Under the pieces are notes generated by a model. That model made no database searches, was not told where the DNA came from, and was given only the letters and a program-made list of their open reading frames with translations. A stretch of DNA of 63,637 bases, counting the filler, from Globobulimina sp. (taxonomy: Eukaryota): assembly GCA_003354225.1 (NCBI GenBank). It is 26 parts of 26 records of this genome, joined end to end, with 100 filler letters (N's around TTAATTAATTAA, not from the genome) between each part and the next. Parts side by side here need not be neighbours in the genome. Positions count along the whole stretch, not along the records: positions 26,978 to 29,329 come from PIVH01007210.1; 25 more parts are not named here. The stretch is one strand, 5' to 3'. This document shows positions 26,978 to 30,064 of the stretch, piece by piece (within the stretch, counting starts at the first letter, position 1; every line of letters begins with the position of its first letter). Made by a program: the position numbers and the translations under genes.

Positions 26978-27733
26978 GAAAAACAGATCACATCGTCGAA
27001 ATCATGCTCGCCAACCATTACCATACCGAAAGATGCATTAACTCTGGTAGATTTTGGATTGGCTCAACGGTGTCGACGCGATCACGGTTTAACTGAGTAT
27101 TGTGGTACACCCATTTATATGGCACCGGAGATATTCGCGCATAAAGAATATGATTATTCATGTGATATGTGGTCCGCTGGGTGCATATTGTATTCATTAT
27201 TAGTTGGTTACACACCCTTTGATTTCGACGACGATCACGATATTAATGAGCTATCCCGTGCTGTTCAACACGATGCGGTTCTGTTTGAACCAGATTATTG
27301 GAGTGGTATAAGTGTTGACGCCAAAGATTTAATACTCAGATTATTAGAAAGGGATCCTATAAAAAGATACACTGCAAAACAAGCATTGCAGCACAGATGG
27401 ATGAGATCTGCAACCACGGATTTATTTGATCAACGTAGAATGGACAGACTGAGGAAGTTTTCATGTGTTCGGAAGTTTAAAAGAGGTGTTAATGCGATGA
27501 TTGCTGTGATACGATTAATTGAAATATTCTCAGAACAACCTGTGGATGATGAAGACGATGAGGATATCGACGATGGAGATGATTATGATGGTTACGATGA
27601 GGATTATGACGAAAATGCAGCGATTATCAGTCCAATGCAGGTAGTTGGTGCAATGGTAGAGGTACTTGATAGTACTACTGACGATGAAGTAGACGACATT
27701 ATTGTAGAAGAAGATGATGATGACTCTGACTAA
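26978..27733 (+). CDS. CaMK-group Ser/Thr kinase, C-terminal half
   Basis: DFG, CGTPIYMAPE, DMWSAG and RYTAKQAL.H.W, followed by a CaM-binding-like helix (LRKFSCVRKFKRGV) and an acidic tail. Confidence 0.9.
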   Translation, partial: EKQITSSKSCSPTITIPKDALTLVDFGLAQRCRRDHGLTEYCGTPIYMAPEIFAHKEYDYSCDMWSAGCILYSLLVGYTPFDFDDDHDINELSRAVQHDAVLFEPDYWSGISVDAKDLILRLLERDPIKRYTAKQALQHRWMRSATTDLFDQRRMDRLRKFSCVRKFKRGVNAMIAVIRLIEIFSEQPVDDEDDEDIDDGDDYDGYDEDYDENAAIISPMQVVGAMVEVLDSTTDDEVDDIIVEEDDDDSD

Positions 27734-27847
27734 TTTTTTTTACTGTTACAGTTTTTTTTCATAGAGTTTTATTTTGGATGTTTGGATTTTCAATATGTAT
27801 TTTTGTATGTTATGTTTATGACTTTATGTTTACATTTTTTATTTTAA

Positions 27848-29017
27848 TCAATCGATAAAATGATCGATTGTGTTTAACAAAGAATCTATCTCAAAAAGGA
27901 ATTTATGATTGGTTGCTGTTTGATGGATAATGTTCTCTTGAGATTTCTGAACATTTATACATTTCCTAAATGTCAATGAAATTCGCTGTTGTCGTTTGAT
28001 GCGCATATGATCATAAACATGAATATCACTTTGTGTTATTCCATGTTGCCATAAATGCCTCGAATCTCCGCTTAAAATCAACAACGATTTGGGTTTTAAC
28101 AATATTTGTTTAATTTCGTTTGTTTCAATCTGTTTAAAATTGATAACAACCTCATTCAACAACGAAATACAAACAATATATTCATCAAAATATTCATTCG
28201 AATCCAAATGATACTCAAAGCCACCAAATGAAGGATAATTATTTACAATCAATTCATTAAAAAAATAATCCTTCGGTATCGGCAATCTATTATCATTTAT
28301 AAGGCGCAATAAAATATTCTTCACACAAAATGGCATGCAATCAAATGGTTTTTTATTTATTTTCTTCACAATTTCATTTTGTATATCAAACGAATGCATA
28401 TATTCTTGAGTCAGACGACAAGATATTTTATCCCATTCATTATTATTTATAAATTGTAGAATTGCATTGTGCTCGTTATCATTAATATAATTTTCTACGT
28501 AATATAGTCCATTTATATAATTGTCATAGATATCATTATCAAATTCGGCTAAAAAGTGTAAATTTGGTGGCTTTCTATCTGCAAATCTTTCTTTTTTTTC
28601 GTAATCATATATTGGCGATACGGGCACAGACAATCGTGATTTACTTTCTTTTGTGTCGAAAAATATACCAAATTCTGGATCGTTTTTGATAGCAGTTTTA
28701 ATGTCGGGTGGTTCGATACGAATTTTGTTTTTCCTTTTTGCCACATTGCCAGACATTTGTAGCAATTCAGAGGTCATAAATTCAATGACTGCTGATAAAT
28801 ATACCCCCGCTGAGGGAGTGATTGAATTAAAATTATTTGCGTTGTCTGTTATTATTTGGCTTTTCATGTTATTCCATATACGGCCTGATGGGAATAATAA
28901 ACCAGTGTAATCGCTATGTTTTATTTCTATTTTATCAATGTCTCGCGGTGTGTCTGTAATAGCAAATGGTAAATTAATATCTAAATCATCCTCAAAATAT
29001 GTGTGTTCTTCTGCCAT
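27848..29017 (-). CDS. Histone H2A-fold / AlkB (ALKBH8-type) 2OG-Fe(II) dioxygenase fusion protein
   Basis: aa 35-120 read GLLFPSGRI...AGVYLSAVIEFMTSELLQMSGNVA...RIEP..IKTAIKNDPEF, an H2A fold. aa 168-352 carry NxY, H270-x-D272, H325 and R345/R351 (RISLTFR), the AlkB signature. Confidence 0.88.
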   Translation of the reverse strand: MAEEHTYFEDDLDINLPFAITDTPRDIDKIEIKHSDYTGLLFPSGRIWNNMKSQIITDNANNFNSITPSAGVYLSAVIEFMTSELLQMSGNVAKRKNKIRIEPPDIKTAIKNDPEFGIFFDTKESKSRLSVPVSPIYDYEKKERFADRKPPNLHFLAEFDNDIYDNYINGLYYVENYINDNEHNAILQFINNNEWDKISCRLTQEYMHSFDIQNEIVKKINKKPFDCMPFCVKNILLRLINDNRLPIPKDYFFNELIVNNYPSFGGFEYHLDSNEYFDEYIVCISLLNEVVINFKQIETNEIKQILLKPKSLLILSGDSRHLWQHGITQSDIHVYDHMRIKRQQRISLTFRKCINVQKSQENIIHQTATNHKFLFEIDSLLNTIDHFID

Positions 29018-29204
29018 GTAGCGCGAACTTCAGGTAGTATATTTTCACGAAAACGTTTCAGGTTGACATTAACTAGAAACAGGAAAATTACTTGATTTGC
29101 TCTATTGATAATTTCCTGAAAACAAGAATACGTCTAATACCAACACAAGATACAATCCAAGATCATTAAGACTAAAAGAATGAATCCAGAACAAAGATCA
29201 TCCG

Positions 29205-29329
29205 GTCTTCAGCGTCAGATTTTTATTGGGGTAAGGTGTAAGCAAACCGTTTCTGGTGACTGATAAAGGCAAAAATAATATAGGTTTGCCTTCGTTTCTC
29301 AGAAACAATAAAAATCTGACGCTGAAAAC
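29205..29329. repeat. 125-bp segment bounded by 24-bp inverted repeats (MITE-like)
   Basis: gtcttcagcgtcagatttttattg (29205-29228) and caataaaaatctgacgctgaaaac (29306-29329) are complementary at 23 of 24 positions. Confidence 0.7.
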
Positions 29330-29429
29330 NNNNNNNNNNNNNNNNNNNNNNNNNNNNNNNNNNNNNNNNNNNNTTAATTAATTAANNNNNNNNNNNNNNN
29401 NNNNNNNNNNNNNNNNNNNNNNNNNNNNN

Positions 29430-30064
29430 CTCCAAAACTATTATCTGCAGCAGATTGTATGTGGTATAATCCCGCTGTTGCAATAACAAGATGTACTGGA
29501 CCAGTTATAATTGGATGCAGTAACAATGTCAATACACCATATTGCAACGGAGAAGGTGAACAATATGATATATTATCATATGAATTTGCTCCTGGTTTTC
29601 ATGAAAAGTCAATTTATAGCGCTGATATAACGGTAATCACATTAACAAAACCGATAACATATCCGAGTGCAATAATAATTACATACGCGACAGTACCACC
29701 ACCTGGCGATGCATCTCAACAATGGAGAATAACTGGCTATGGTTCTTCATTGACATTATCAACAGGAATAACAACATATGTTCCGCATATTGAATGTGGT
29801 GCTGCATTGGGTCAATGGTCTCCGTATTTGGATTGGTCAATGGTTTGTATATGGAATGGCGAGGATAATAAAACAGCCACTTCTGAATGTTTTGGTGATT
29901 TTGGTGGGCCAATGGTGTATAATAATATTCAATATGGAATCATGTCATTTGCATTTGCAAATTGTGAGCCATGTGGTTGCTGTACACAATGGCCTCAAAT
30001 GGGCGCAAATGTGGCACTTTTTGCTGATTGGATAGCAAATCAAACTACAATTGCAAATAAGTAA
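29430..30064 (+). CDS. Trypsin-family (S1) protease homologue, probably inactive (5' partial)
   Basis: LLSAADC (cf. TAAHC), ADITVITL, ITGYG, CFGDFGGP (cf. GDSGGP), YGIMSF and ADWI. Confidence 0.85.

Follow-up and report, generated by a model that had tools for sequence, protein, structure and literature searches.

In the window analysed here, a stretch of 63,637 nt from the Globobulimina sp. genome assembly GCA_003354225.1, we found a gene (27848..29017, minus strand; its product is referred to as P0001) that joins a histone fold derived from H2A to an AlkB-type 2-oxoglutarate (2OG)/Fe(II) dioxygenase domain within a single open reading frame (ORF). The protein comprises an acidic N-terminal region, the H2A-derived fold, a short conserved motif, a variable and mostly acidic linker, and an AlkB domain of the ALKBH8 clade with a conserved end helix. 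The gene is a genuine one of a foraminiferan-type eukaryote, its H2A-AlkB architecture is conserved in a small family found so far only in foraminifera, and this architecture is a new one made from domains of two known kinds. Judging from the sequences, we consider it somewhat probable that the H2A-derived fold serves as a partner-binding module, with H2B as its probable partner, that carries an oxygenase or oxygenase-like domain. A first-pass annotation had described the gene as a fusion of an H2A-derived fold with a sequence-intact ALKBH8-like AlkB domain, and had called such a fusion previously undescribed. The first claim was confirmed, since the linker between the two domains is bridged in three further sequencing runs (X2, X6 and X7) and the fusion recurs in relatives; as to the second, the text passages searched in the literature gave no description of an H2A-AlkB fusion.

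The ORF runs from ATG to TGA, encodes 389 aa and contains no internal stop. It is carried by a contig (26978..29329) bounded by spacers of N, with 312 nt separating the ATG from one end of the contig and 870 nt lying between the other end and the first base of the stop codon. The ORF is uninterrupted and both its ends lie well inside the contig, as had been claimed. The window as a whole (1-63637) consists of about 26 such contigs of about 2.35 kb (roughly 2350 nt each), chained via spacers of the form N44-TTAATTAATTAA-N44, for example at 29330-29429. Gene order across the spacers is thus meaningless, and genes beyond 26978..29329 are unrelated to the fusion gene. The features of P0001 given below are all on the minus strand.

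The H2A-derived histone-fold domain occupies aa 34-123 (28649..28918), as delimited by phmmer, Pfam, the helices of a structural model and alignment to H2A. In a phmmer search of PDB chains, aa 34/35-117 aligned to about residues 17-94 of many H2A chains with E values of 5.3e-10 to 1.5e-9, bearing out the earlier claim that the N-terminal half matches the H2A core. A model of full-length P0001, built with AlphaFold2 from a 95-row alignment (mean predicted local distance difference test score, pLDDT, 78.8), places helices at 44-55 (alpha1), 68-95 (alpha2), 103-112 (alpha3) and 114-123 (alphaC). When canonical H2A and H2A.Z-like sequences were put into the same alignment, the G-R at the start of alpha1, nearly all of alpha2, and also alpha3 and alphaC proved to be kept, and loop L1 was 5-6 residues longer than that of H2A. 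G45-R46 is nearly invariant in the family, R46 being the equivalent of H2A R29; R100 of loop L2, the equivalent of R77, is kept in 7 of the 9 members that have the fold, and alpha2 departs little from the H2A consensus. Four of the six acidic-patch positions are kept and two are changed, the equivalent of H2A R42 is lost, and every family member has W in place of the H of the HRLLR stretch, P0001 reading W-N-N-M-K at the HxxLR position. The structural roles of these H2A residues (minor-groove contacts for R29 and R77, the acidic patch, R42) are taken here to be those known from nucleosome structures.

What surrounds this core differs from H2A. The N-terminal region (aa 1-33, 28919..29017), defined by its charge and by the family alignment, carries a net charge of -7 in place of the basic H2A tail; its motif DINLPF..T.TP.D is common to P0001 and its Bolivina relative P0004, and recurs with one residue changed in the Nonionella relative P0152. 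No match to Histone_H2A_C (PF16211) was found in P0001 at E values up to 1, and the H2A alignment stops at about residue 94. The basic tails and the docking domain are missing, as the first-pass annotation had noted together with the acidic N-terminal tail, and a family-specific motif occupies the place of the docking domain. The fold has a net charge of +1, compared with +7 for the same region of canonical H2A, whose total is +16. The isoelectric point (pI) of P0001 is 5.5, and those of its relatives range from 4.4 to 6.9.

These features bear on whether P0001 could be a true nucleosomal variant in the manner of macroH2A, with its fold replacing H2A in the octamer and the oxygenase thereby built into chromatin. 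The homology to H2A is clear, the R29 and R77 equivalents and 4/6 acidic-patch positions are kept, and the short variants H2A.B, H2A.L and H2A.P also have a truncated docking domain and a reduced acidic patch, as does the fold of P0001. Those variants are small, basic and nucleosomal, and are not known to have an added domain. Many divergent H2A paralogues are also known from a foraminiferan: the part available of a preprint on the foraminiferal life cycle (10.64898/2026.10.21.760831; Allogromia) reports 17 of them with stage-specific expression, and AlkB is unmentioned in that part. However, P0001 lacks the basic tails, the docking domain and the R42 equivalent, its L1 is longer by 5-6 residues, its fold has a net charge of only +1 and the whole protein a pI of 5.5. 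With the basic tails and docking domain gone and the greater part of the positive charge lost, a bulk nucleosomal role is unlikely; P0001 is probably no bulk nucleosome subunit, and we regard the nucleosomal variant as an unlikely explanation.

The AlkB-type 2OG/Fe(II) dioxygenase domain occupies aa 168-353 (27959..28516) and was recognised by Pfam, phmmer, the model and Foldseek. The Pfam family 2OG-FeII_Oxy_2 (PF13532) matches aa 199-351 with an E value of 3.9e-18 and 66.8 bits, compared with a cut-off of 31.2. Among solved structures the nearest to the C-terminal half is ALKBH8 (3thp; E 2.5e-12), followed by Caenorhabditis elegans NMAD-1 (1.6e-6), ALKBH7 (9e-6), Schizosaccharomyces pombe Ofd2 (1e-3), Escherichia coli AlkB (0.016), ALKBH5 (0.02) and ALKBH6 (0.8), and the distance between the first two of these values supports the earlier view that the domain closely resembles that of ALKBH8. 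In the model the domain has a pLDDT above 90 over most of aa 170-350, and Foldseek matched the model to ALKBH6 (E 1.3e-14), ALKBH8 (1.9e-14) and NMAD-1 (3.6e-14), with Ofd2 at ranks 29-30; the template modelling score (TM-score) for ALKBH6, normalised by target length, was 0.75. The domain thus has the jelly-roll fold seen in AlkB homologues of solved structure.

The catalytic residues of this domain are complete in P0001. N259, Y261, H270, D272, H325, R345 and R351 are all present, each of them is invariant in 80/80 stand-alone relatives, and the alignment places all seven at the residue numbers given for the AlkB signature in the first-pass annotation. N259 and Y261 belong, like the two arginines, to the residues that bind 2OG. 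In the DNA, the HxD iron ligands correspond to the codons of H270-L271-D272 (28202..28210), the distal iron ligand to the codon of H325 (28043..28045), a residue that is Q, R or Y in 4/8 family members, and the 2OG-binding arginines to the codons of R345 to R351 (RISLTFR; 27965..27985), all assigned by alignment.

The resemblance to ALKBH8 raises the question of whether P0001 is an ALKBH8-type enzyme of nucleic acids, acting in tRNA wobble-uridine hydroxylation or in the repair of alkylated bases, with the H2A fold replacing an RNA-binding domain or aiding nuclear import. ALKBH8 is its best solved relative, and the relatives found by profile search include proteins that combine AlkB with a methyltransferase, namely P0036, P0073, P0076, P0088 and P0115, which have the ALKBH8 architecture. 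In the part available of one study, moreover, single-domain ALKBH8 proteins of protozoa, bacteria and mimivirus are described as having repair activity on alkylated DNA, with two protozoan ones also modifying tRNA (PMC4051686); the tRNA modification by some such enzymes is a hydroxylation. Against this, Pfam found neither an RNA recognition motif (RRM) nor an S-adenosylmethionine (SAM) methyltransferase domain in P0001, a charge-neutral histone fold would be a poor RNA binder, and the repeated loss of iron ligands described below would be unexpected in an enzyme with a housekeeping task in tRNA modification or repair. We consider this explanation rather improbable.

Other close relatives of the AlkB domain carry other partners: P0019 has an XPG-type nuclease, P0022, P0029 and P0041 have an O-GlcNAcase-like NAGidase domain, and P0022 has TRIP4 zinc-finger domains in addition. 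The AlkB clade of P0001 appears to fuse readily with modules of nuclear and repair function.

Further segments lie between and behind the two domains. Directly after the histone fold, family alignment and identity define a conserved motif, GIFF.TKESKSRLSVP.SP (aa 117-135, 28613..28669), followed by a variable linker (aa 136-167, 28517..28612) that is shorter in P0001 than in its relatives, which carry long acidic inserts. At the C terminus a spacer and a conserved amphipathic helix (aa 354-389, 27851..27958) were identified from the model, the family alignment and identity; the helix is predicted at 356-388, ends in the conserved FLF.IDSLLN..D.F and is also present in the H2A-less relative P0009. 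Expressed as mean pairwise identity among four full-length family members, the post-fold motif (aa 116-135) is the best conserved region (70%), followed by the histone fold (61%), the C-terminal helix (60%) and the AlkB domain (53%), whereas the N-terminal region and the two variable spacers reach only 14-21%. Constraint on the histone-derived part has therefore been no weaker than that on the enzyme part.

To ask whether the fusion exists beyond this assembly, Logan contigs of four public runs were compared with 27700-29200, the best match, and possibly the source of the sequence, being run X1, and X2, X6 and X7 coming from three other studies. X2, from another study and with another organism label, contributes one contig over 27760-29007 with 6 differences, which together with the ORF reading supports the complete coding sequence (27848..29017; 389 aa plus TGA). 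Contigs from X6 (28416-28978) and X7 (28477-29009), like that of X2, cross the linker at 28516-28660. Across the runs the ORF has 24 variant sites, 14 of them synonymous and 10 mostly conservative replacements, none at a ligand; this is the pattern of a coding gene under purifying selection.

Database searches recovered further H2A-AlkB fusions: P0002 (471 aa), P0003 (503 aa), the truncated P0007 (306 aa) and the very divergent P0090 (513 aa), as well as P0006 from Elphidium margaritaceum (384 aa, C-truncated; MMETSP transcriptome), P0152 from Nonionella stella (427 aa) and the partial P0004 and P0008 from Bolivina argentea. P0008 and P0152 were counted as one sequence, P0008 being identical to the first 209 residues of P0152, which may reflect cross-contamination between two transcriptomes in the same resource. 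All named sources of the fusion are foraminifera. In a quick maximum-likelihood tree the fusion family forms one clade (Shimodaira-Hasegawa-like approximate likelihood ratio test, SH-aLRT, 93), in which P0001 is the sister of P0004 from Bolivina (97) and P0009, which lacks the H2A part, lies at the base. When shorter proteins were searched by word index with the H2A part, P0008 was the sole match, and a family profile search found no further fused member.

A second genomic locus (L001; 3359 nt, 47% identity) also carries a fusion gene, in this case interrupted by a single 68-nt GT-AG intron immediately behind the histone fold. Removal of the intron keeps the frame, restores the family motif and yields a protein of 443 aa. 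P0010, an H2A half, and P0005, an AlkB half, are evidently split gene models of this locus.

These data speak directly to whether an H2A gene and an AlkB gene were joined into a chimera during assembly or amplification. The data set is one of short contigs, and the contig ends in a 24-nt inverted repeat, a possible form of amplification artefact. But contigs from three further studies bridge the linker, at least three named foraminiferal transcriptomes and a second, intron-bearing genomic locus contain the fusion, and the motif in the linker region is itself conserved. A chimera is already contradicted by these data, since all of the sequences would have to be independent artefacts, and we regard it as extremely improbable. 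The data also bear on two checks proposed with the first-pass annotation: the same architecture is present in Bolivina, Nonionella and Elphidium transcriptomes, meaning that homologues do not always encode the two domains separately, and independent contigs from three further studies do span the linker, none of them confirmed as RNA.

How P0001 might work is suggested by what its histone fold has kept. Histone folds are obligate dimers, and a lone fold requires a partner. Since alpha2, the helix used for dimerisation, is kept together with both arginines that contact the minor groove (the R29 and R77 equivalents), while the nucleosome-specific parts are lost, a putative pairing with H2B is the most likely arrangement. 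The dimer, formed with H2B or a protein resembling it, would be soluble or peripheral to chromatin and would place the AlkB domain beside H2A-H2B dimers or nucleosomal DNA. Going by its residues, the AlkB domain of P0001 would be expected to use O2 and 2OG for the oxidation of a base carrying a methyl group or another modification, or of a side chain in a histone, and in about half of its relatives the domain would act as a non-catalytic binding module.

Several observations weigh against this reading. Starting with the histone half, the Pfam Histone match of P0001 (PF00125; aa 61-111, E 1.2e-5, 26.0 bits) falls 0.4 bits below the cut-off of 26.4, which is exceeded in four relatives (P0002, 29.5 bits; P0004, 27.5; P0008, 31.6; P0010, 40.1); in the HMMER check proposed for both halves, the AlkB half thus scored clearly above its cut-off and the histone half just below. 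In the AlkB half, position 255 is E in P0001 and Q in 79/80 stand-alone relatives. As for expression, X6 and X7 are guessed to be RNA, a guess that is unconfirmed, and the expression evidence for the P0001 copy consists of the transcriptomes of related species only.

The remaining objection comes from the iron ligands of the relatives. Of the 8 members in which the HxD/E...H triad is visible, only 4 retain it in full, compared with 80/80 stand-alone relatives. HxD/E is kept in 6/9 where visible and is changed in P0003 (A.H), P0006 (R.E) and P0090; the distal His is kept in 4/8 (P0001, P0002, P0007 and P0009) and is replaced by Q in P0003 and P0090, by R in P0005 and by Y in P0152. The losses adjoin intact copies in the tree, as with P0005 beside P0002, which indicates that iron binding was given up several times. 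Because the ligands have been lost repeatedly in close relatives, catalysis is not the conserved core of the family and an enzymatic role is not general to it. The ligand-dead paralogues suggest that binding and not only catalysis is under selection.

Taken further, the same data could mean that the core function of the family is non-catalytic, with the AlkB fold a module for binding or reading, or a scaffold insensitive to 2OG and O2, and the triad of P0001 a retained ancestral state. The distal His being Q, R or Y in 4/8 members, the loss of HxD in 3/9 and the position of these losses among close relatives of intact copies, P0152 as well as P0005 beside P0002, all point that way, as does the contrast with the 80/80 stand-alone relatives that retain every ligand and the better conservation of the histone fold and post-fold motif than of the AlkB domain. 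On the other hand, the triad is kept in P0001, P0002 and P0007, with NxY and both arginines also kept in P0001 and P0002, and 0/10 of the non-synonymous variants seen in other runs hit a ligand. We give this explanation a low probability.

A further alternative is that the H2A-like fold docks on the AlkB domain or C-terminal helix of its own chain, as substrate, pseudosubstrate or regulator, or that the protein pairs with itself. The segment from alpha2 to alpha3 has a higher pLDDT in the full-length model (74-94) than in the domain-only model (72-80), and Ofd2 is reported, in the part available of the source, to act on the HxxLR motif of H2A (PMC3250473). The corresponding position of P0001 is, however, W-N-N-M-K and is W-led across the family, and a two-copy complex prediction of the whole protein (score 0.17, mark 0.42) bears neither way on self-pairing. 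Docking within the chain or self-pairing is quite improbable in our view.

Pairing with H2B remains our preferred reading, with the earlier proposal modified accordingly. P0001 had been put forward as a macroH2A-like variant or an H2B-binding module that delivers an active demethylase. The architecture of H2A and AlkB in one gene stood; the idea of an active demethylase delivered in the manner of macroH2A fared less well given the loss of the tails, docking domain and charge and of the iron ligands of relatives. From a model of the isolated histone-fold domain no superposition on H2A was obtained. More speculatively, and with a probability we hold to be small, foraminifera may possess a histone-embedded oxygenase, in which the fold would pair with H2B and load onto or beside nucleosomes, the O2- and 2OG-dependent AlkB domain would set or remove a mark (N6-methyladenine, for instance) on nucleosomal DNA or on histones, right at the histone dimer, and ligand-dead paralogues would act as readers or antagonists of that mark. 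If true, this could tie the state of chromatin to the supply of oxygen, or to the drastic nuclear cycles that foraminifera undergo, and would provide a natural fusion in support of the disputed link between H2A and the AlkB proteins Ofd2 and ALKBH1.

Among known systems, macroH2A is the obvious comparison. It consists of a complete basic H2A, with its docking domain, and a macrodomain that binds ligands. P0001 shares with it the order of an N-terminal H2A-type fold, a linker and a C-terminal globular non-histone domain, and in this respect the macroH2A-like architecture that had been proposed stands. It fails in the details: no macrodomain match was found in P0001, whose C-terminal domain is AlkB, the H2A part is truncated and charge-neutral, and the added domain is a 2OG/Fe(II) oxygenase. 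By sequence, the closest AlkB domains are those of ALKBH8 and single-domain ALKBH8-like oxygenases, which have the same catalytic and 2OG-binding residues as P0001. The H2A fold and the C-terminal helix are confined to the fusion family, as is the loss of ligands in some members.

Links between AlkB-fold enzymes and H2A, or chromatin more generally, have been reported before. ALKBH1 is said to be a histone H2A dioxygenase. The AlkB-family protein Ofd2 of S. pombe, of the ALKBH1 clade, is likewise reported as one in the part available of its description (PMC3250473). Both are AlkB-fold enzymes tied to H2A, as is P0001, and Ofd2 is among the sequence and fold matches of P0001, but they meet H2A in trans, whereas P0001 has the H2A-derived fold in cis and does not conserve the HxxLR position. 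In the part available of another paper, AlkB domains fused to a PHD finger, an AT-hook or a SAD/SRA domain are proposed to be DNA N6-methyladenine demethylases (PMC4738411). They follow the same logic as P0001, an AlkB domain joined to a chromatin-targeting module; their partners are reader or DNA-binding domains and their AlkB domains belong to the AlkBH3 and AlkBH5 clades, with no core-histone partner mentioned in that part. A broad survey of eukaryotic chromatin proteins mentions macroH2A in the portion of the preprint text available, and AlkB, 2OG and foraminifera nowhere in it.

To our knowledge, core histones almost never carry enzymes, and the only well-known H2A to which a globular domain has been added is macroH2A, whose extra domain binds but does not catalyse. 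A conserved H2A-AlkB family would be a new way of tying an oxygen-dependent oxidative modifier, or a reader, to histones, and the fusion offers independent support for the reported and poorly understood link between the AlkB family and histone H2A. The family also provides a handle on chromatin regulation in foraminifera, and its ligand-intact and ligand-dead close relatives amount to a natural experiment on the transition from enzyme to pseudoenzyme. The fusion should interest specialists in chromatin and in 2OG oxygenases, an interest tempered by the frequent loss of catalysis in the family.

Two further origins were considered and set aside. An origin of the fusion in giant viruses is unsupported, the giant-virus contigs having only stand-alone AlkB ORFs (202 and 216 aa). 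A reading of the L001 intron as a relic of exon shuffling was rejected, since the intron lies at the domain boundary but is largely a short-repeat copy and is missing from the P0001 gene. Most of this intron is a 97%-identical copy of a 35-nt element that is also found just upstream of the start codon of this orthologous gene; copies lie at 169-203, 642-676 and 682-716 of L001, the third, weaker one at the 3' edge of the intron, which may have been made from, or invaded by, a short repeat. A metagenome locus (L002) is an AlkB-only relative with 24% identity.

Besides the fusion gene, its contig (26978..29329) contains the 3' part of a convergent protein-kinase gene and 312 nt 5' of the ATG. 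The kinase part (27059-27733, plus strand) matches Pfam Pkinase positions 145-263 (E 9e-27), has a long D/E-rich tail, ends 114 nt from the stop codon of the fusion gene and is cut by the contig end. A trypsin-family ORF (29459-30064, plus strand; E 2.4e-11) lies on the next contig and is not a neighbour of the fusion gene. Its active-site motif reads GDFGGP, where GDSGGP is usual, and it is possibly a non-catalytic protease homologue.

The inverted repeat at the contig end has 24-nt arms (29205-29228 and 29306-29329) that are 96% complementary and 77 nt apart, the outer arm ending exactly at the contig end. It is possibly a fold-back artefact of amplification or assembly, or a hairpin element; it lies at least 190 nt upstream of the P0001 ATG and leaves the ORF untouched. 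Closer to the gene, a 45-nt stretch upstream of the ATG (29016-29060) has a word depth above 200 in X1 and X2, compared with 6-31 over the gene, and several contigs branch at both of its edges. No second copy was found within the window. The high depth and the branching indicate that this stretch also occurs at many other places in the genome; candidates for it are a shared promoter or leader element and a repeat.

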